Origin: an uncultured Candidatus Saccharibacteria bacterium | GTDB lineage: Bacteria; Patescibacteriota; Minisyncoccia; JAHCSD01 | Assembly (NCBI GenBank): GCA_964373435.1 | Contig: CAYJUS010000001.1 | Location: 473 to 45,711, forward strand | Reading direction: 5' to 3' | Length of the DNA stretch: 45,239 nucleotides | In this document: in pieces, positions 609 through 8,765 of the stretch | Layout: every line of letters starts with the position of its first letter | Numbering within the stretch: the stretch's first letter is position 1 | The notes under the pieces: model-generated | Told to the model about the DNA's origin: nothing | The model's database searches: none | The model's input: only the letters and a program-made list of their open reading frames with translations | Position numbers and translations under genes: made by a program

Positions 609-642
609 GAAAAATGAAAAGGCAGAACATTCATTCTGCCTT
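609..642 (-). terminator. Intrinsic terminator after the paralog pair
   Basis: A 9-bp stem aaggcagaa/ttctgcctt (619-627 / 634-642) is followed on the - strand by ttcattttt. Confidence 0.6.
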
Positions 643-677
643 CTTCGTTTATGATTTATTCCTCTGTACCTAGAAGC

Positions 678-1733
678 CTAATTTTTCAGGCAAGTAGGGG
701 TAATCCAAAGGTCACCTCTGAAACCATCAAAGTGTGTATAGGTTAAGCAAACTTTCGCTTCTGCCGGTCTATAATAAAGTAGCCCCAATGCCGGCACAAA
801 CTCTCCTTCGATGCGGGATCCAACACAGAGATAACCGAGGCTATTCAGAAGGCTATCGGAATCGCAAATGATGAGACATACTGCCTCTCGCACGGTAAGC
901 CCCCGTCTTTGTTCTATTAATCCGGTACAAATGAGTTCTTCTGCTTCAAACGCACTCATGCCTTCGGTAGAACCCGTACCTGCTTCGGCATCAACATCAT
1001 ATATCCAGTAGAACAGTGTTCGGGGAGTTTCTACTACACTCTCAATGTTGTTCTCGTTCATAAGACATTCGCCTCTTTTGCCGTCAACCAGAATAAATTT
1101 CATGAGTCTCGCGAGGGGGAGGCAATTTACCACGAGAAGATAACTTTCGTGTCCCGGCTCGGGATCAGGAATGTTTTCTAACGCGGTATCGGTGTCCATC
1201 CCAAGTAAATCGGGAAGAAAATATCCTTTATCGCATGCGTCCATGTACTTTCGAAGGTACTCTTCTTTAACCTTTCGAGGGTCAAATGCGGGCTGCTTTT
1301 CACATCGGTTACGCAACTGGTTAAAAAATTCGCCTGAAATTCCCGCTACGTCCCAACGTGCAACAAGGACCTCTGCCACTTCTCGACCATACCCACGGTT
1401 TATGAACGTGGTTGTCATCTCACGAACCTTGCTTTTGGTAAGACTCTCCAATGACCTTTTCTCTTCTTTTGTTAAAACCATTTCTGAATTCTCCGTTTCT
1501 GTGTTTTCTATGATTCCGCGAAGCGCTCGGAACCATCCGTCGCCATGATCGCGCTTAAACACCGCGATCCATTTGACGAGCTTCTCTTCTTCGTTCGAAA
1601 GACCCTCTTGCTGCGCTCTCTGCGCCGCTTTCGTGGGTGTCGACTCCTCTAGCCCGATTTCGAAAAGAAGATCGGCTTTGGGATGCCGAAGTGCTTCACG
1701 TACCTTCACCATAAGATCTTCTCTAGACCTCAT
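678..1733 (-). CDS. Hypothetical protein, paralog A (351 aa); no family recognised
   Basis: Long ORF with a GGGAGG SD 5 nt before the ATG. The first ~212 codons are identical to ORF 1775..2788. Confidence 0.7.
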   Translation of the reverse strand: MRSREDLMVKVREALRHPKADLLFEIGLEESTPTKAAQRAQQEGLSNEEEKLVKWIAVFKRDHGDGWFRALRGIIENTETENSEMVLTKEEKRSLESLTKSKVREMTTTFINRGYGREVAEVLVARWDVAGISGEFFNQLRNRCEKQPAFDPRKVKEEYLRKYMDACDKGYFLPDLLGMDTDTALENIPDPEPGHESYLLVVNCLPLARLMKFILVDGKRGECLMNENNIESVVETPRTLFYWIYDVDAEAGTGSTEGMSAFEAEELICTGLIEQRRGLTVREAVCLIICDSDSLLNSLGYLCVGSRIEGEFVPALGLLYYRPAEAKVCLTYTHFDGFRGDLWITPTCLKN

Positions 1734-1774
1734 ATATACCTCCCTTGTCCTTCCGTAGCTTTATGCGAAGGAGG
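1099..1774 (-). repeat. Direct repeat copy 1 (676 nt, identical to 2154-2829)
   Basis: Base-by-base comparison at an offset of 1055 nt. It covers a 41-nt leader plus 635 nt of coding sequence. Confidence 0.9.
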
Positions 1775-2788
1775 TTAACTAAGGCAGGAGGCCGAGCCCC
1801 ACCCCGAAAGCGAGCTGTTCGCCCAGTGCCAAAGGAGCCTCGGCTCGCCCCCGCTGAGCCACAAGCTCGCGACATTGCCGCCGCCGTGGCAAGAGCCAAC
1901 CGCAAAGACGTTATGGTCTTTGAGAGCCCCTGAATCTGCTATGGCAAGACAGACGACTTCTCGCGCGGTGAGCGCTTGTCTTTTCTTTCTTCCAAAGGAT
2001 TTTTGCGCATCAACCGGTTTCTTGCCGCATGTGGCCTTTCCGTCTTCAACATCATACCGCCAGTAAAAAAGCGTTTTGGGAACTCCCACCACATCTTCAA
2101 TCTCGTTCTCGTTGAGAAGACACTTTCCTCTCTCGCCGTCAACCACAACGAACTTCATGAGTCTCGCGAGGGGGAGGCAATTTACCACGAGAAGATAACT
2201 TTCGTGTCCCGGCTCGGGATCAGGAATGTTTTCTAACGCGGTATCGGTGTCCATCCCAAGTAAATCGGGAAGAAAATATCCTTTATCGCATGCGTCCATG
2301 TACTTTCGAAGGTACTCTTCTTTAACCTTTCGAGGGTCAAATGCGGGCTGCTTTTCACATCGGTTACGCAACTGGTTAAAAAATTCGCCTGAAATTCCCG
2401 CTACGTCCCAACGTGCAACAAGGACCTCTGCCACTTCTCGACCATACCCACGGTTTATGAACGTGGTTGTCATCTCACGAACCTTGCTTTTGGTAAGACT
2501 CTCCAATGACCTTTTCTCTTCTTTTGTTAAAACCATTTCTGAATTCTCCGTTTCTGTGTTTTCTATGATTCCGCGAAGCGCTCGGAACCATCCGTCGCCA
2601 TGATCGCGCTTAAACACCGCGATCCATTTGACGAGCTTCTCTTCTTCGTTCGAAAGACCCTCTTGCTGCGCTCTCTGCGCCGCTTTCGTGGGTGTCGACT
2701 CCTCTAGCCCGATTTCGAAAAGAAGATCGGCTTTGGGATGCCGAAGTGCTTCACGTACCTTCACCATAAGATCTTCTCTAGACCTCAT
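1775..2788 (-). CDS. Hypothetical protein, paralog B (337 aa); no family recognised
   Basis: Long ORF with the same SD and N-terminal module as paralog A. Its C-terminal ~125 aa are diverged. Confidence 0.7.
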   Translation of the reverse strand: MRSREDLMVKVREALRHPKADLLFEIGLEESTPTKAAQRAQQEGLSNEEEKLVKWIAVFKRDHGDGWFRALRGIIENTETENSEMVLTKEEKRSLESLTKSKVREMTTTFINRGYGREVAEVLVARWDVAGISGEFFNQLRNRCEKQPAFDPRKVKEEYLRKYMDACDKGYFLPDLLGMDTDTALENIPDPEPGHESYLLVVNCLPLARLMKFVVVDGERGKCLLNENEIEDVVGVPKTLFYWRYDVEDGKATCGKKPVDAQKSFGRKKRQALTAREVVCLAIADSGALKDHNVFAVGSCHGGGNVASLWLSGGEPRLLWHWANSSLSGWGSASCLS

Positions 2789-2829
2789 ATATACCTCCCT
2801 TGTCCTTCCGTAGCTTTATGCGAAGGAGG
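2154..2829 (-). repeat. Direct repeat copy 2 (676 nt, identical to 1099-1774)
   Basis: Same comparison as for copy 1. Confidence 0.9.
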
Positions 2830-2867
2830 ATTTCCAGGCACACTGCCTAAATTTTAGAGAACAGGTC

Positions 2868-2896
2868 AGTATACCAACCCCCCAAAAAATAGTCAA
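2868..2896 (-). promoter_or_regulatory. Sigma70-like promoter for the paralog B-A operon
   Basis: The - strand reads TTGACT-N17-TATACT (2896-2891 / 2873-2868). Confidence 0.6.
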
Positions 2897-2900
2897 GCTA

Positions 2901-2930
2901 TTGACATATTTCTCGCTTCTGATATATAAT
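2901..2930 (+). promoter_or_regulatory. Sigma70-like promoter for the small membrane protein gene
   Basis: TTGACA (2901-2906), N18, TATAAT (2925-2930). It sits back-to-back with the - strand promoter. Confidence 0.6.
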
Positions 2931-2960
2931 GATCGGTATCCAAAAAAGGAGGTACACATA

Positions 2961-3251
2961 ATGTTTGGACGGAGAAATAGAAGTCCGGACCTTGTAAAAA
3001 AGGTTGATGAGCTGATGAAAGATATCGCGGAGGCGCAACAGTCAACGACGCAGGATCAGTCAGAAAAAGAAAGAGAGCTCACTGTGGGCCTTATTGCGGG
3101 ATTGGTAGGGGTGACTGTAACCGAGGTTTTGAGACAAGCGTTCACTAAAAAGAATTACAGAAAAGCCGCAAAAGCGATCGCGATCCGAGCCGGAATTTCT
3201 CTCGCACTTTACGCACTCGCGCGGCGAACCGTTTTCAAAAAAAACAAGTAG
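2961..3251 (+). CDS. Small membrane-anchored protein (96 aa), unknown function
   Basis: ATG 2961 is preceded by AGGAGG (2948-2953). There are two hydrophobic segments. The TTG at 2901 in the ORF track is the -35 box itself. Confidence 0.6.
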   Translation: MFGRRNRSPDLVKKVDELMKDIAEAQQSTTQDQSEKERELTVGLIAGLVGVTVTEVLRQAFTKKNYRKAAKAIAIRAGISLALYALARRTVFKKNK

Positions 3252-3265
3252 GGACAAAGACGCAA

Positions 3266-3297
3266 AAAGAGCAGGAATACCTGCTCTTTATTTATTC
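3266..3297. terminator. Bidirectional intrinsic terminator
   Basis: A 10-bp stem aaagagcagg/cctgctcttt with loop aata, flanked by A- and T-runs, lies between convergent genes. Confidence 0.7.
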
Positions 3298-3951
3298 ACG
3301 ATAAATGATAGTCGCGCGACCGTCGCTCGGTTTGTCTCTCCAGTTTTGCTTGCTTATGCGGTCGCTTTTTTCTTGAGGAAACTCTGTGAAAAAACTCGAG
3401 ACAAAGTTTTTCGCTCTGTCCCACGACGTAACAAGATGGCTGTTGACATCGAAGTCTTTATACTCATGATGCGCGCTTGCAAGAATCACGGGCACGCCTC
3501 CGCTTTTCCCCGCATCAAAACATCTTACGTGGAAACGTTCGCCCCGCTCTTTCGAAACCTCCCAGTCACACTGAAAACTCATGAATTTGATGCGAGAATG
3601 AATCAGTAGATATTGCCCGGATCCTGTCATGGAAAAACGCCATCCTTTCTCTCGAAACAATTTCTTGAGTTCACTTGATGAAAACCCCACAAACATGAGA
3701 TTCACCGGGTCAAGTGTTTTTGTCCAACTGATGCCGAACGAGTGCACGGAGGCATTCACGGTACACACCATGAACGTGTAGGGAAAAAATTTCACCGTAC
3801 CTCGCTCCCCTATTTGCATCCCGACCCTATGGGGAAAAAGAATTGCGAAAACCAATGGAGATAAAAAGAACGCGGCAATGTTTCTTACACACGCAATAAC
3901 AATGTTTCTTATACGCGCAATGCTCTCTCCGATACGGCAAATGTCTTTCAT
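3292..3951 (-). CDS. Membrane protein, possibly an LssY-like C-terminal domain protein
   Basis: ORF with an N-terminal TM helix. ATG 3951 has GAGGTG upstream. The family call is from memory only. Confidence 0.4.
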   Translation of the reverse strand: MKDICRIGESIARIRNIVIACVRNIAAFFLSPLVFAILFPHRVGMQIGERGTVKFFPYTFMVCTVNASVHSFGISWTKTLDPVNLMFVGFSSSELKKLFREKGWRFSMTGSGQYLLIHSRIKFMSFQCDWEVSKERGERFHVRCFDAGKSGGVPVILASAHHEYKDFDVNSHLVTSWDRAKNFVSSFFTEFPQEKSDRISKQNWRDKPSDGRATIIYRE

Positions 3952-3987
3952 TCCTCGCACCTCGCATTTTCAAAGAGTGGTGGCTAC

Positions 3988-5082
3988 TCAGGAAACCCTC
4001 TTTCGTAGCTTCTGAATTATTGTATACAGGGTATACCACAAGCGGTCAAGCGGGTAGTCGTATGTCCCCGCATATCGCGCTTCGTTTCCGCCGAACCCCC
4101 GCTTGAAACGAGTGACGCCGGGCCACTTTTTTTCCGAAACCCCCCACAAGTCATATTCCGTGCATCCTCGCCTTTTCGCCTCCTTTATTGTCTCCCAATG
4201 AAGAAGGTAGGGCGCCATACTATTGCGATAGTCGTTGGATGAAGCGCCGTGGAGATAAGTTGCACGCGGGCCAAAAAATATCGTAATGTTTGCCGCAAGG
4301 ATAGTCCCTTTATATTCTGCGGTAAATAGTTCTCCGACGGGATCGCTCGGGGAGGATCTGACCCTCCCCGAGAGGCCAGATCCTCCCCCGACTAGCATAT
4401 TCTCGTAATATTTCCTTGTATGGAGGTGGAACCCGTCTCGTTTCACGGTTTCCTCAAACAGCGGCCAGACACGTTCAAAATAGCCGTTTGTTACGCTCTC
4501 GTTTTTAGATACCGTCACTTCTTTTCGCTCGGCAAGCCGGATATTATACCGCGTCTTGGGACGCATAGAAGCAAGAATCTCCTCTTCGGATTTCGTGAGA
4601 TCAAGGATAATGGTTTCCCGCGGCTGAACGTCTTTGGAAGATTCGCGAAGGCCAACTCTCTTTAAAAACTCTTTTATTTCTTTCGTCGCAGCCCACTCGG
4701 GATCCATCCGAAAAAAGATTGCGTTTTCTCTTTCCGCAAGCTGTCGTACCTCGCGCAGGAAAATTTCAAAAACGCCAACGGGTTTTTTGAGGGAGAGAAA
4801 ATCTACAAGAGGACCTCGGGGAGCGTAGAGAAATGTTTTTCCGAACGGAAGCGGATGGGTAAGGACAAGCGCGGCCATACGCCATTTGTCGTTTCCCCTC
4901 CCTCGGAACTTTTTCTCTCCTGTAAAATCAACTGTGAATGATCTCTTCTCGGTTGCAATGATAACGTGGGCGTGATTGCCCGCTTCATTTTGAAAAAGAC
5001 CCCAGTCATAAGACTGGAGAAAGGAACCTGCGGGACTCGCAGAAACAAACGTGTTCCAGTGTGTCCTGAAATGGAGCTGCAT
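3988..5082 (-). CDS. FemAB-family peptidoglycan bridge-forming aminoacyltransferase
   Basis: 364 aa, with FemAB-like blocks (SFLQSYDWG, YAPRGP, RYNIRLAERK, HLHGASS, PYLLHWE, GVxxFKxGFGG). Confidence 0.75.
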   Translation of the reverse strand: MQLHFRTHWNTFVSASPAGSFLQSYDWGLFQNEAGNHAHVIIATEKRSFTVDFTGEKKFRGRGNDKWRMAALVLTHPLPFGKTFLYAPRGPLVDFLSLKKPVGVFEIFLREVRQLAERENAIFFRMDPEWAATKEIKEFLKRVGLRESSKDVQPRETIILDLTKSEEEILASMRPKTRYNIRLAERKEVTVSKNESVTNGYFERVWPLFEETVKRDGFHLHTRKYYENMLVGGGSGLSGRVRSSPSDPVGELFTAEYKGTILAANITIFFGPRATYLHGASSNDYRNSMAPYLLHWETIKEAKRRGCTEYDLWGVSEKKWPGVTRFKRGFGGNEARYAGTYDYPLDRLWYTLYTIIQKLRKRVS

Positions 5083-5718: not shown

Positions 5719-7698
5719 ATGAGATTCCAATTAACAACCGACCTGCGATTGACTTCGGACCAGCAACGCGCAGCCGAAACGCTTACGAAAGGAATCGCGT
5801 CCGGTTTCAAAAACCAGGTGCTTTTGGGCGTTACGGGGTCGGGTAAAACCTTTACGGTTGCTTCCGTCATTGAACGAGTCCAGAAGCCGACACTCGTAAT
5901 CTCGCACAACAAAACCTTGGCCGCGCAACTCTATCAGGAATTCAAGGAATTTTTTCCGGAAAACGCGGTCCACTATTTTGTAAGCTACTATGACTACTAT
6001 CAACCCGAAGCATATATCCCGCAAACTGATACCTATATTGAAAAAGACGCAAAAATAAATGACGAGATCGACCGATTACGGCACGCCGCCACCCAAAGCA
6101 TTCGTACGAGGCCCGATACGATTGTGGTGGCATCGGTCTCGTGTATTTACGGGATAGGAGACCCTGAAGAATACGAAAAGGTTGCGCTTGAGATAAAGAA
6201 GGGGGAACACGTATCGCGAAAAAAGATAATCGAAAAACTGGTGGAGCTTCAATACGCGCGAGACAATATTCTCGCGGTTCCGGGGAGCTTTCGCACGCGA
6301 GGCGAACAGGTAGAGATCGCTCCCATTACGGGCGACAATATAATCAGGATAGCTCTTCGCGAAAACGAAATAGAGTCGATCACACGCGCTCATCCCCTCA
6401 CGGGGGAGACAACCTCGCACACCGACGCGATACAAATTTTCCCCGCAAAACATTTCGTGACCCCCCAGGAGAAACTTGAGCGTGCGCTCAAGAATATTTC
6501 CCGCGAACTCGAGGAACGACTGGAGGATTTCAAAAAAGCGGGCAAACTTCTCGAAGCGCAGAGAATCGAAACGCGCACGCGTTTTGATATAGAAATGATG
6601 CGCGAGACGGGATACTGCGCGGGAATCGAAAACTACTCGCGCCATTTGAGCTTCCGAAAACCGGGAACCCCCCCTTCGACGCTTCTTGACTATTTCTCCT
6701 TCGACCCCTTTCGACTACGCTCAAGACAAGCCGCTCAGGACAAACCTAAAGATTTTTTGCTTGTGATTGACGAGTCGCACATGACGATTCCCCAAATCCG
6801 CGGAATGTATAACGGCGACCGCGCGCGAAAAGAAATACTCGTCGCACACGGCTTTCGCCTTCCCTCTGCGCTGGATAATCGTCCTCTCACATTCGAAGAG
6901 TTTAACGCCCTACGGGGAGAAACACTGTATACATCGGCAACGCCGGGCCCCTATGAGCTGGGAGAAACAAGAACGCATATCGTCGAACAGCTCACGCGTC
7001 CTACCGGCATTCTTGATCCTCCCGTGGAAATCCATCCCACAAAAGGACAAGTCGAACACCTCATACGGCGCATTCGGGAACGAACAGCGAGGAAAGAGCG
7101 GGTTCTCGTTACGGTTCTTACCAAGCGTCTTGCGGAAGACCTCACTGAATTCTTGCTCAAGGAAAATATACAGGTGCAGTATCTCCATTCGGAAATCAAA
7201 ACGTTGGAACGCCCAGAAATACTACGCGATTTACGGCTGGGAACGTATGATGTCATAGTGGGGGTTAACCTCCTGCGGGAAGGCCTTGATCTTCCTGAAG
7301 TTTCCCTTGTTGCGATATTAGATGCGGACAAAGAAGGGTTTTTGCGCAACGACACGACGCTCATCCAAACCATGGGGCGCGCCGCGCGGCACACGAACGG
7401 CCAGATTATCATGTATGCGGACACTACCACCCAATCAATGAAGCGAGCAATCCGGGAAACGGATCGACGAAGAGCATATCAAAAAGCCCACAACAACCGG
7501 TACGGCATTGTTCCCACACCGATAAAGAAGGATGTCCGCGCGCCGATTGTTGAAAAAGGGGAGGGAGGTATAAAAGAAGGGTTCAAAAAGATGACGTTCA
7601 AAGAGCTTCAAAAAGAAATGAAAAAAGCGGCGGAAAGTCTGGAGTTTGAACGGGCGGCAGAAATACGAAACATGATAAAAAAACTTGTCACGTCATAA
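5719..7698 (+). CDS. uvrB: Excinuclease ABC subunit UvrB (with a ~17-codon in-frame insertion)
   Basis: Motifs GVTGSGKT, DESH, GFRLPSALDNRPL, helicase motif VI GRAARH, and the C-terminal UVR domain. Homology starts at ATG 5719. Confidence 0.95.
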   Translation: MRFQLTTDLRLTSDQQRAAETLTKGIASGFKNQVLLGVTGSGKTFTVASVIERVQKPTLVISHNKTLAAQLYQEFKEFFPENAVHYFVSYYDYYQPEAYIPQTDTYIEKDAKINDEIDRLRHAATQSIRTRPDTIVVASVSCIYGIGDPEEYEKVALEIKKGEHVSRKKIIEKLVELQYARDNILAVPGSFRTRGEQVEIAPITGDNIIRIALRENEIESITRAHPLTGETTSHTDAIQIFPAKHFVTPQEKLERALKNISRELEERLEDFKKAGKLLEAQRIETRTRFDIEMMRETGYCAGIENYSRHLSFRKPGTPPSTLLDYFSFDPFRLRSRQAAQDKPKDFLLVIDESHMTIPQIRGMYNGDRARKEILVAHGFRLPSALDNRPLTFEEFNALRGETLYTSATPGPYELGETRTHIVEQLTRPTGILDPPVEIHPTKGQVEHLIRRIRERTARKERVLVTVLTKRLAEDLTEFLLKENIQVQYLHSEIKTLERPEILRDLRLGTYDVIVGVNLLREGLDLPEVSLVAILDADKEGFLRNDTTLIQTMGRAARHTNGQIIMYADTTTQSMKRAIRETDRRRAYQKAHNNRYGIVPTPIKKDVRAPIVEKGEGGIKEGFKKMTFKELQKEMKKAAESLEFERAAEIRNMIKKLVTS

Positions 7699-7790: not shown

Positions 7791-8765
7791 CGAATCTTCG
7801 TGTTTGTTTTTGAAAAGTTCATATTCATGTTTTCCGTTGTGTTCTTTCCTGAATAATTTTTCTATGTGTCGTTCAAGTGAAGAGATGCGTGTCTCCGGCG
7901 AAGGAGTTCGTCCGGGTCCGCTATTATCTCGCGGGATCTCAAACCCAAGAAGCTCCTGAATGCGCCGTACAAACTCTTCGACGCGAAATTCCGCGGTTTC
8001 GGCGTGGACGAGACCGTGCGCGGTTTCCGTCTCTTCGCTCGGGAGAAGCGGAGCGCTCTCGATCACGAGACGCGATCCTTCCCATCGAATACGGTTTTCC
8101 TGTATCCAGATGATTTCGAGGTCGTCCACCCTGCGGCTGGATTTCCTGAACCCGTAGTGGTGCATAAGATGTCCTCTGTCCGATGACTCAATGCCCACCA
8201 TCTGCTTTACCAAAAGTCCGCCTTTCACGCGCAGGCCGTGGTTCAGCATGACGCGATATTCGACAGAGCGCGGCGTGGGGCTTCCGCGGCCGCACGCGCA
8301 CTGAATTTCTTCGTGGGAAAATACCGCCCACCCGCCGAATGATTCGAGAACCGCCTTAAGTTCCTGTTCGTTGGAAGAGAACGTTTTTGCATGCGAGCTT
8401 GTATCCGCCGCGATCGCAGACACCAAAGGAAACCGAGTGGTCGGATCCCAAGGAACCGCGCAATTTAGATATTGGTCGTTCACCCGTTTAATGGTTTCGC
8501 GCTCGGCAACCAATGCGAGGCACAGTGCCTGTGCGGGGAGAAACCGAACCCCTTCTTGTTTTACGAGTTCGCGCCCCAAAATGTCGATGCGCCGCGTCAG
8601 CATCCGAATCGACCTTCTCCAATCAATAAACTTTGGCGGGGTGTAGTCTTTTAGGTTGGGCAGATGAATGGGTTTATCCTGCTCTGGTTGATCGGAAGTT
8701 GCCATCCCTTTTCTAAGCCAATTGTAACGGGGGAAAATGTCCTCGAGCAGCGTTGTAATGCTCAC
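7779..8765 (-). CDS. Hypothetical protein (328 aa), no family recognised
   Basis: GTG 8765 has GAGGAGA about 7 nt upstream. The gene has its own consensus promoter and flanking terminators. Confidence 0.65.
   Translation of the reverse strand: MSITTLLEDIFPRYNWLRKGMATSDQPEQDKPIHLPNLKDYTPPKFIDWRRSIRMLTRRIDILGRELVKQEGVRFLPAQALCLALVAERETIKRVNDQYLNCAVPWDPTTRFPLVSAIAADTSSHAKTFSSNEQELKAVLESFGGWAVFSHEEIQCACGRGSPTPRSVEYRVMLNHGLRVKGGLLVKQMVGIESSDRGHLMHHYGFRKSSRRVDDLEIIWIQENRIRWEGSRLVIESAPLLPSEETETAHGLVHAETAEFRVEEFVRRIQELLGFEIPRDNSGPGRTPSPETRISSLERHIEKLFRKEHNGKHEYELFKNKHEDSKRK

Follow-up and report, generated by a model that had tools for sequence, protein, structure and literature searches.

Partial gene conversion between tandem paralogs is well known in bacteria, as in tufA and tufB of Salmonella and in the opa and pil families of Neisseria. 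Some bacterial proteins serve as targets of diversity-generating retroelements (DGRs), and a study by Paul and colleagues in 2017 was reportedly the first survey of the variable proteins of CPR DGRs. According to Roux et al. 2021 (PMC8144416), the CPR DGR targets typically show neither a transmembrane segment nor any other conserved domain that can be recognized. Here we analyse two tandem genes, an upstream copy A and a downstream copy B, in a stretch of 45,239 nucleotides (referred to as the window). The family to which copy A belongs has the same features as the CPR DGR targets of DGR clade 2 (PMC8144416), namely a C-terminal variable region (VR), a template, adenine-only mismatches and an adjacent reverse transcriptase with bAvd; as in those targets, there is no transmembrane or other recognizable domain in copy A. 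The locus differs from them in that reverse transcriptase, Avd and template repeat are all missing from the window, neither copy has the YTTGG-periodic element, and copy B lacks any VR signature. We consider it probable, at roughly 0.7, that the locus is a tandem pair of paralogs of the Pfam family DUF5701 in one operon, in which a shared block of 676 nucleotides is a product of recombination and not a functional cassette.

Structure of the tandem pair

The two blocks are exact copies over 676 nt at an offset of 1,055 nt, and neither end can be extended by a single base; past the 5′ edge, only 12–15 of 50 positions are identical at the same offset. The perfect identity, like the junction and the number of copies, is as given by the assembly, and a de Bruijn graph assembler may merge sparse differences between repeat copies, so that 'perfect' should be read as at least near-perfect. 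On the minus strand, each block runs from a 41-nt leader (CCTCCTTCGCATAAAGCTACGGAAGGACAAGGGAGGTATAT, with GGGAGG inside it) through the ATG and codons 1–211 to the first two bases of codon 212, which is AAG in copy A and AAA in copy B. On the 3′ side of this boundary, DNA identity is at once about 75–78% and then decays with indels. The stop codon of copy A (TAA, 1777–1775) abuts base 1774, the first of the downstream block, and the period is exactly the leader plus the entire copy A coding sequence (41 + 1,014 nt). A previous sequence-only reading of this DNA had described both the identical blocks and a precise head-to-tail unit, and recomputation reproduced each of them.

Table 1 Features of the DUF5701 locus, in coordinates of the window
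Feature	Coordinates	Strand	Remarks
Sigma-70-like promoter of the gene pair	2868..2896	-	Consensus scan: TTGACT-17-TATACT, upstream TG
Upstream copy of the 676-nt block	2154..2829	-	Leader with GGGAGG ribosome-binding site (2829-2789), codons 1-211 and two bases
Copy A, 337 aa (P0001), upstream paralog	1775..2788	-	ORF; ortholog of the gene of relatives
DGR-type variable region of copy A	1778..1903	-	Encodes GSCHGGGNVASLWLSGGEPRLLWHWANSSLSGWGSASCLS; same position as the VRs of L007 and L012
Downstream copy of the 676-nt block	1099..1774	-	Begins right after the copy A stop codon
Copy B, 351 aa (P0002), downstream paralog	678..1733	-	ORF; residues 1-211 identical to copy A
Copy B codons 212-351, the diverged 3′ part	681..1098	-	No VR signature; WGSASC replaced by LWITPTC
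Intrinsic terminator-like hairpin 3′ of copy B	617..644	-	Consensus scan: GGCAGAA...TTCTGCC, then T-rich

One promoter and one terminator had also been proposed for the pair. Both were recovered in a consensus scan (Table 1), and both have equivalents in orthologous loci: a similar promoter-like site lies at the same relative position in the orthologs, and the terminator-like hairpin is kept in three of them (L001, L002 and L005). Directly 3′ of copy B, the terminator is followed by the gene for a Mur ligase. A candidate structure in the leader, in which CCTCC would pair with GGAGG and mask the ribosome-binding site, was rejected (its z-scores, 0.13 and 0.04, did not exceed those of shuffled sequences), and Rfam gave zero matches at the gathering threshold across the whole window.

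DUF5701 is a DGR target family

DUF5701 is a target family of DGRs in Patescibacteria. There are more than 322 homologs, nearly all of the named ones from Patescibacteria, and an RVT_1 reverse transcriptase adjoins the DUF5701 gene in four of six independent contexts (L006, L007/L008, L009 and L012), three of which also include bAvd. At two unrelated loci, a template repeat (TR) matches the last 125 nt of the gene, with mismatches concentrated at template adenines: 21 of 23 in L007 (VR 6600–6724, TR 8495–8619) and 17 of 17 in L012 (VR 4561–4685, TR 6455–6579). In these proven targets, the last 40 or so codons (GSRY...WGSASC) are rewritten from the template by adenine-specific mutagenesis. A T-rich, YTTGG-periodic element follows the stop codon of the proven targets and of the orthologs, and is absent from both window copies. 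Searches for template repeats in L001–L003, L005, L006, L009 and L010 gave none, except that the two VRs of L006 match each other. For none of the 'type 1' VRs (copy A, L005, L006 and L010) did we find a template repeat or a reverse transcriptase.

The multi-target locus L006 resembles the window in that two DUF5701 paralogs lie near each other in one genome. The L006 paralogs, however, share their 3′ ends, with matching VRs and about 100 nt of identical sequence downstream, whereas the window pair shares its 5′ end. Sharing of the 3′ end is what the cis-elements of DGRs require.

A full-text literature search for 'DUF5701' returned no papers, and there is no published function for the family. 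The sequence-only reading had recommended a Foldseek search for the fold, which gave nothing with E < 1 for the full model of copy A (against PDB and BFVD) or for the domain of copy B (against PDB); the weak best matches were to C-type lectins (E of about 1–2, target-normalized TM-scores of 0.37–0.43). A profile search of PDB sequences yielded only spurious helical matches.

Copy A resembles a DGR target

Copy A matches the DUF5701 profile (PF18959) at 43.6 bits (E = 3.7 × 10−11, residues 193–335), where 27.4 bits are needed for gathering. Residues 1 to about 187 form a helical N-terminal region, which is followed by the alpha/beta domain of DUF5701; this domain begins near residue 190 in an AlphaFold2 model with a mean pLDDT of 84. 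After residue 212, copy A keeps 31 of 39 family-conserved columns. An assignment of copy A to the ADP-ribosyltransferase family 2CompART was rejected (E = 0.024 and 15 bits, far under the cutoff of 27, with no support from structure searches); a literature search for '2CompART' returned irrelevant substring matches only.

The gene lies in the same neighbourhood in all five relatives (L001–L005), in the order RuvA, FemAB, a 220-aa protein, the DUF5701 gene and Mur ligase, and copy A is 52–57% identical to these orthologs over its full length, with the synteny common to all. L001 and L005 each have one copy of the gene, and theirs are the only contigs to reach the Mur ligase; those of L002–L004 stop at the gene or shortly past it, so that copy number can be read in L001 and L005 only. 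A check for a tandem duplicate in L001–L003 and L005 showed no leader-like sequence behind the stop codon.

The VR of copy A contains 10% adenine compared with 30% in the remainder of the gene, and its DNA shares 78–81% identity with that of the VRs in L005, L006 and L010. Over the 150 nt upstream of the VR, identity is 75% to the ortholog L005 and 61–63% to L006 and L010. Together with homology, the depletion of adenine in the VR and its conservation at the DNA level suggest that copy A is a DGR-type target; neither the depletion nor the conservation is seen in copy B, the tail region of which has 24% adenine and no similarity to VRs. A template for the copy A VR would resemble GGCTCTCGCCACGACGACGACAAAGTCGCGAATTTGTGG...TGGGGCTCGGCCTCCTGC. 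We searched the window with the reverse transcriptase and Avd sequences of L006, L007 and L009 (tblastn) and obtained no match below E = 0.1; an adenine-tolerant scan and a pattern search of the same 45 kb gave no template repeat for either copy. Remote (trans) targets of DGRs are known, and a DGR could sit elsewhere in the genome.

Copy B is diverged but maintained

The C-terminal remainder of copy B is an aberrant and anciently diverged DUF5701 remnant. Copy B scores 21.2 bits against PF18959, under the 27.4-bit cutoff, but its homology is clear by alignment; typical family members match the 3′ part with E values from 5 × 10−6 to 0.02. Only 19 of the 39 family-conserved columns after residue 212 are kept, and the 20 losses include EDGK..LGK.P..A and GSAS. 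In a phylogenetic tree, the copy B segment is basal to copy A and L001–L005. Over residues 213–295, copy B differs from copy A with pS = 0.69, dS = 1.85 and dN = 0.44 (ω = 0.24). A search of 1.84 billion representative proteins yielded no further relative of the tail.

These losses raise the question of whether copy B is decaying like a pseudogene and has no function of its own, such that copy A alone matters. The score under the Pfam cutoff, the loss of about half of the conserved positions, a tail modelled at low confidence (pLDDT of 50–66) and the lack of homologs elsewhere point in this direction. However, the 139 diverged codons of the tail are free of stops, a result equalled in only 3 of 20,000 shuffles, and the other two frames contain 9 and 10 stops. 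The ω of 0.24 relative to copy A, the intact ribosome-binding site and start codon, and a domain core that is predicted to fold like the rest of the family (pTM of 0.77, with a pLDDT of 76 for the C-terminal domain) likewise argue against decay. The copy B reading frame is maintained under purifying selection, and we regard the pseudogene explanation as unlikely.

The identity boundary lies within a domain

The sequence-only reading had taken residue 212 as the boundary between a constant N-terminal module and alternative C-terminal modules, in the manner of polymorphic effector or toxin loci or of variable receptor-binding loci. In such a programmed system, the 676-nt repeat would be a substrate for switching. 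The head-to-tail geometry and the provision of a ribosome-binding site for each copy fit this idea. So does the occurrence of the first 85 or so residues ('GLSNEEEKLxKWxAV') on three short metagenomic proteins (P0131–P0133) with unrelated C-termini; P0131 and P0132 share 85% identity across 87 residues, beyond which they are unrelated. Intragenic recombination has also been proposed to fuse diverse domains to the C-termini of DGR targets (Roux et al. 2021, PMC8144416).

The placement of the boundary argues otherwise. Residue 212 falls inside the DUF5701 domain, since the Pfam match spans residues 193–335, the alignment with ordinary family members reaches back to about residue 148 and the modelled domain starts N-terminal of 212 as well. 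The two parts of the protein also fail to behave as cassettes in relatives: the N- and C-terminal parts of the orthologs L001–L005 have diverged together at comparable rates, as in one ordinary protein, and no contig that is long enough to tell has more than one copy of the gene. Such co-variation is the outcome that the sequence-only reading had named as a refutation of its proposal. Between copy A and the orthologs, pS is 0.58–0.71 over the N-terminal part and dS is 0.97–2.8 over residues 213–295. The N-terminal identity of copies A and B therefore does not reflect constraint on the sequence, because the same part has diverged between copy A and the orthologs.

Nor did we find the other parts that a modular system would be expected to have. 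A survey for orphan C-terminal cassettes had been suggested; the B-type tail has no second example in the representative proteins or in the window, and the 45 kb contain neither a third DUF5701 copy nor an orphan cassette. The resemblance to polymorphic toxin loci is one of superficial layout only, with identical N-terminal parts and different C-terminal parts in tandem; unlike those loci, the pair has its junction within a domain and comes without orphan cassettes. Pfam and NCBIfam searches detected no toxin, immunity, trafficking or secretion domain, the matches being to DUF5701 and, below threshold, to 2CompART, and neither a signal peptide nor a convincing membrane segment was predicted. 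The head shared with P0131–P0133 ends near residue 85, a boundary distinct from that at residue 212, and its attachment to unrelated tails could be a frameshift artefact of the short, unpolished contigs from which proteins such as P0131 and P0132 derive. We consider a programmed modular system very improbable. For the proposed variable receptor-binding locus the outcome is mixed, in that the family is indeed diversified by DGRs and the cassette modularity is not supported.

Origin of the mosaic

Between copies A and B, dS is 0.007 over codons 1–212, where codon 212 alone differs, by one synonymous change, and 1.85 over codons 213–295. The reading frame thus switches abruptly from a dS near zero to saturation, the pattern by which a tandem duplicate shaped by conversion or other recombination is recognized. 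The 3′ thirds are old and diverged (dS of about 1.85, dN/dS of 0.24) and the copy B reading frame has been kept, so the identical block reflects a recent event. The repeat had been proposed as a substrate for recombination, and recombination is the best account of the pattern.

The same pattern might have arisen during assembly, if the assembler had placed two strain alleles of one gene (with A-type and B-type tails) one behind the other or had miscounted the passes through a repeat loop of its graph, with the identity produced by bubble collapse. The DNA probably comes from a short-read metagenome-assembled genome, since its closest relatives are Patescibacteria genomes of this kind; both proteins occur on one contig only in a collection of 15 billion proteins; an exact repeat of 676 nt is longer than the usual k-mers and reads; and three ortholog contigs (L002, L003 and L004) break off at or just past the gene. 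Against an artefact, the join between stop codon and leader (TTAGTTAA followed directly by CCTCCTTCG) has no sequence in common with the ancestral downstream flank, and an assembler would need real k-mers to create it. Two alleles would moreover enter the same 3′ flank, of which copy A retains no trace, and the dS of 1.85 in the copy B tail is on the scale of different species, far past strain variation. An assembly error is accordingly a poor explanation, and we give it little weight.

We return to recombination within a tandem pair as the preferred account. Copy A is orthologous to the gene found in relatives between FemAB and Mur ligase, and has retained a typical adenine-poor VR. Copy B is an extra copy, the last 140 codons of which split from those of copy A at least as anciently as the species split, with loss of the VR sequence and of several family-invariant motifs. 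Two routes could have led to the present arrangement. In route (a), the tandem pair would be old, and recent intrachromosomal gene conversion would have homogenized its 5′ two-thirds. In route (b), a recent tandem duplication of the 1,055-nt unit of leader and coding sequence would have been followed by replacement of the downstream 3′ end and its flank by a diverged allele. Route (a) requires the loss of B-type copies in every sampled relative; route (b) requires a donor allele, and none is present among the 1.84 billion representatives.

The locus shares with gene-converted tandem paralogs the sharp change, inside one reading frame, from an identity of 100% to synonymous divergence at saturation. 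It differs from them in showing one tract in one genome, with no sign of recurrent exchange, and in that the tract reaches the edge of the unit, for which recent duplication with replacement of the 3′ end fits equally. Identity up to the exact 5′ edge is a little unexpected under simple gene conversion, and favours route (b). In either case the pattern is an ordinary mosaic of duplicated genes with an ordinary mechanism, not a cassette system.

The net effect would be that one promoter expresses two cytoplasmic proteins with the same N-terminal 211 residues, and so presumably with a partner or location in common. The two would differ in their putative ligand-binding ends, that of copy A being of the DGR-writable type and that of copy B being fixed. 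A stronger version, which we regard as doubtful, is that a DGR target family is here escaping hypermutation: copy A would retain a retroelement-written site, copy B would have a fixed and selected end, and recombination would keep the N-terminal 211 residues identical, so that the two proteins could engage a common partner.

Implications

Taken by itself, the locus is a textbook mosaic of tandem paralogs and teaches little. The gain is in annotation: DUF5701 is a DGR target family of Patescibacteria, with a VR of the form GSRY...WGSASC and a T-rich, YTTGG-periodic element downstream, and the link between a Pfam family and CPR DGR targets should help future surveys. If the escape from hypermutation were real, the 676-nt repeat would let cells delete the copy A tail and pass to a B-only state, and if the head of about 85 residues were also shuffled, Patescibacteria would be shuffling modules on top of DGR mutagenesis. 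In the pair itself, a DGR-type form of one protein naturally stands beside a fixed form, and a comparison of the two may be used to find the ligand or partner.

An exact repeat at the base of a tandem pair

The two paralogous genes, copy A (P0001, upstream) and copy B (P0002, downstream), share a block of 676 nt that is identical at an offset of 1055 nt and cannot be extended by even one base at either end, with the reservation that identity and copy number are read from an assembly, in which the assembler may have erased sparse differences between the blocks or miscounted the unit. On the minus strand, the block comprises a 41-nt leader with GGGAGG, the ATG, codons 1–211 and two bases of codon 212, which is AAG in one copy and AAA in the other. 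As the period is the sum of 41 and 1014 nt, the leader and the copy A coding sequence together make up the repeated unit exactly. Past the boundary, DNA identity is immediately ~75–78%, and further on it declines as indels accumulate. Chance cannot account for an exact repeat of 676 nt. The sequence-only reading is confirmed here for the repeat and its period and for the stop codon of copy A, whose TAA is followed immediately by the downstream block; the single promoter and terminator that it placed around the pair were both located, and orthologous loci have them at equivalent positions. It is unlikely that an assembly artefact underlies the pair, because the join between the copy A stop and the leader requires real k-mers, the ancestral 3′ flank leaves no trace after copy A and the tails of A and B differ at the level seen between species.

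Coordinates of features in the window and in related loci
Feature	Sequence	Position	Strand	Remark
Copy A	window	1775-2788	-	ORF, 337 aa
Copy B	window	678-1733	-	ORF, 351 aa
Identical blocks	window	1099-1774; 2154-2829	-	676 nt each
Sigma-70-like promoter	window	2896-2868	-	upstream of gene pair
Terminator hairpin	window	644-617	-	downstream of gene pair
Copy A variable region	window	1778-1903	-	last 126 nt
Conserved 5′ UTR	window	2836-2860	-
Small gene	window	2901-3289	+	ATG 2961 to 3251; promoter 2901-2930; terminator 3266-3289
222-aa ORF	window	3292-3960	-
Counterpart of 222-aa ORF	L005	2060-2722
Gene end and inverted copy	L007	6600-6724; 8495-8619
Reverse transcriptase ORFs	L007	7037-7471; 7479-8087	-
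Repeat pair	L012	4561-4685; 6455-6579
DUF5701 array	L006	3180-9673
T-rich element	L001	3240-3320
T-rich element	L002	4615-4680
T-rich element	L003	3650-3710
T-rich element	L005	3993-4050
T-rich element	L006	6240-6290; 8853-8900
T-rich element	L007	6733-6780
T-rich element	L012	4694-4740

Domain limits, orthologs and neighbourhood

Copy A is a DUF5701 protein (PF18959, Pfam, residues 193–335, 43.6 bits versus a cutoff of 27.4), a threshold that copy B, at 21.2 bits, does not reach. NCBIfam and PDB sequence searches with the window proteins gave no match, and a full-text literature search for 'DUF5701' returned no paper. The profile of the C-terminal domain recovered more than 322 DUF5701 proteins of 200–300 aa, and its named matches are nearly all from Patescibacteria. 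Few relatives match over the full length: three database proteins and two additional loci, at 52–57% identity, all of which share the neighbourhood RuvA – FemAB – (220-aa ORF in L005) – X – Mur ligase. Among the ortholog loci (L001–L005), one of which derives from a Patescibacteria MAG, the gene is single-copy in L001 and L005, whose contigs extend to the Mur ligase; the copy count rests on these two, as the contigs of L002–L004 stop at or shortly past the gene.

The AlphaFold2 model of copy A (87-sequence alignment) is confident (pLDDT 84), with helices at residues 1 to ~187 and an alpha/beta domain from ~190 to the end. Identity thus ends, at residue 212, ~20 residues inside the domain, and also well within the stretch alignable to ordinary family members, which begins near residue 148. 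A constant N-terminal module with alternative C-terminal modules, of toxin or receptor type, had been proposed for this locus. What stands is a tandem unit shaped by recombination; a polymorphic toxin or cassette system is rejected on domain content, the position of the boundary inside the domain, the co-variation of N- and C-terminal parts of the orthologs as one gene and the lack of other tails in the window and among 1.84 billion representative proteins. A profile of residues 1–147 also retrieved three short metagenomic proteins (P0131–P0133, 192–225 aa, from Logan contigs of 2.3–3.8 kb) that have only the first ~85 residues in common, with the signature GLSNEEEKLxKWxAVxKRD. Their C-termini are mutually unrelated and none is DUF5701 (P0131 and P0132 agree at 85% of 87 residues and are unrelated beyond them), a pattern that may reflect genuine shuffling of a head module or frameshifts in unpolished contigs.

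The promoter of the paralogs stands back to back with that of a small gene (perfect TTGACA-18-TATAAT) with an AGGAGG ribosome-binding site, its own terminator and a probable 96-aa ORF with hydrophobic stretches; this gene is absent from L001–L005. A further ORF, of 222 aa and unmatched in Pfam, lies between FemAB and the paralogs; it has a counterpart at the same position in L005 (44% identity) and is absent from L001–L003, so the FemAB-to-Mur-ligase interval gains and loses genes between relatives. The 5′ UTR between promoter and ribosome-binding site is conserved in the window, L002, L003 and L005, with the sequence TGTTCTCTAAAAT followed by a short hairpin (window, GGCAGTGTGCC; L002, GGCCAGTGCGGCC; L003, GGCTAGCGTAGTC), in which some differences between loci look compensatory. 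The repeated leader begins just past this hairpin, and ~30 nt of it are absent from the orthologs.

Retroelements that diversify DUF5701

Diversity-generating retroelements (DGRs) target DUF5701, a link that lies outside the original finding and alters the reading of the window locus. Among loci of other DUF5701 genes (L006–L013), an RVT_1 gene directly adjoins an ordinary DUF5701 gene in 4 of 6 independent contexts (L006, L007/L008, L009 and L012, but neither L010/L011 nor L013), and the accessory gene bAvd (PF22296) accompanies the reverse transcriptase in L007, L009 and L012. The last 125 nt of the L007 gene pair with an inverted copy beside bAvd, and 21 of the 23 mismatches have A in the template and a different base in the gene; all mismatches in the L012 pair (17/17) are of this type. 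Both pairs bear the defining template repeat/variable region (VR) signature of a DGR, which is direct proof. The VR occupies the final ~40 codons, from GSRY to WGSASC. DGR targets in CPR bacteria (clade 2) are typically without a recognisable domain (Roux et al. 2021, PMC8144416).

The layout of L007 and L012 is unusual, with target and bAvd on the plus strand and the reverse transcriptase, in two ORFs in L007, on the minus strand. Since the template repeat also reads in sense on the minus strand, bAvd is antisense between template and reverse transcriptase. The L006 array runs VWA/CobT_C (722 aa), DUF5701 (295 aa), AAA_5 MoxR-like ATPase (548 aa), DUF5701 (283 aa) and truncated reverse transcriptase (188 aa), with part of a phage integrase close by. 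Its two DUF5701 genes are identical at the 3′ end and over ~100 nt downstream, with VRs that differ at scattered positions, and no template repeat was found within the 16.8 kb examined. Three of five ortholog contigs end at or near the gene (L004 at 6867, L002 148 nt past it and L003 203 nt past it), L004 at residue 292, just ahead of the VR start (~296); population heterogeneity of the VR would have this effect on assembly.

The variable region is retained in copy A and lost in copy B

The last 126 nt of copy A contain 10% adenine, compared with 30% elsewhere in the gene, and share 78–81% DNA identity with the VRs of L005, L006a, L006b and L010. The preceding 150 nt are 61–63% identical to L006 and L010, the proteins of which are only ~30–40% identical overall to copy A, and 75% identical to the ortholog L005. 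Low adenine and this level of identity show that copy A carries a typical retroelement-written VR. The equivalent segment of copy B has 24% adenine and DNA unlike any VR, and its tail reads LWITPTC in place of the family WGSASC. Past residue 212, copy B keeps 19 of 39 family-conserved columns, versus 31 in copy A, and has lost the near-invariant EDGK..LGK.P..A motif. In comparisons with ordinary family members, copy A reaches E 1e-17 to 1e-30, and copy B no better than 5e-6. The 45-kb window holds no reverse transcriptase, Avd or template repeat for either copy, and no third DUF5701 gene.

Between stop codon and terminator, the proven targets L007 and L012, as well as L006 and the orthologs L001–L003 and L005, have a T-rich element of 60–80 nt with YTTGG/YTCGG/CTTG repeats every ~10–11 nt, which may be a cis element of the DGR target site. 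It is absent in L009, L010 and L013 and after both window copies (after 1775 and after 678); the latter absence points towards copy A being a fossil rather than an active remote target.

Age and history of the pair

By Nei–Gojobori estimates, the copies differ by one synonymous change in codons 1–212, at codon 212, and by pS 0.69, dS 1.85 and dN 0.44 (omega 0.24) in codons 213–295. Copy A differs from its orthologs in other species by pS 0.58–0.71 in codons 1–212, and the N-terminal DNA is thus not intrinsically frozen; the values for codons 213–295 are dS 0.97 to saturation and dN 0.16–0.31. A neighbour-joining tree of residues 213–295 places copy B below copy A and all orthologs, yet inside the subfamily. 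No stop interrupts the 139 diverged codons of copy B (equalled by 3 of 20000 shuffles), with 9 and 10 stops in the other two frames. Divergence, open frame, omega and tree together establish that the 3′ third of copy B is old and selected, and the open frame and omega make a pure pseudogene unlikely. The domain core of copy B is predicted to fold like the family (AlphaFold2, pTM 0.77), with the VR-equivalent tail modelled at low confidence (pLDDT 50–66). This third is also unique: among 1.84 billion representative proteins, the C-terminal 138 residues match the cluster of orthologs over their first 107 residues (E 3e-15), and the only other matches are three weak multi-stretch ones.

An old 3′ part fused in frame to a 5′ part of zero divergence makes a recombination mosaic. 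Old tandem paralogs may have had their 5′ 676 nt recently homogenised by gene conversion, which demands loss of a B-type copy in every sampled relative. Alternatively, the 1055-nt unit may have been recently duplicated in tandem, after which the 3′ end and flank of the downstream copy would have been replaced by a diverged allele, which demands a donor absent from all databases. Duplication and replacement fit slightly better, given that identity extends right to the edge of the duplicated unit and that the copy B downstream flank differs from that of the orthologs. On either route the 676-nt block arose incidentally through homologous recombination and is not a constant module by design.

The window proteins have no signal peptide, and the one hydrophobic stretch in them corresponds to a strand/helix buried in the domain. 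We infer that one operon yields two cytoplasmic proteins with identical N-terminal 211 residues and different putative binding ends. The locus adds a member to two kinds already known, tandem paralogs that recombination has shaped and families targeted by DGRs; its main value lies in the link between DUF5701 and DGRs and in the contrast that a DGR-type paralog makes with a fixed one.
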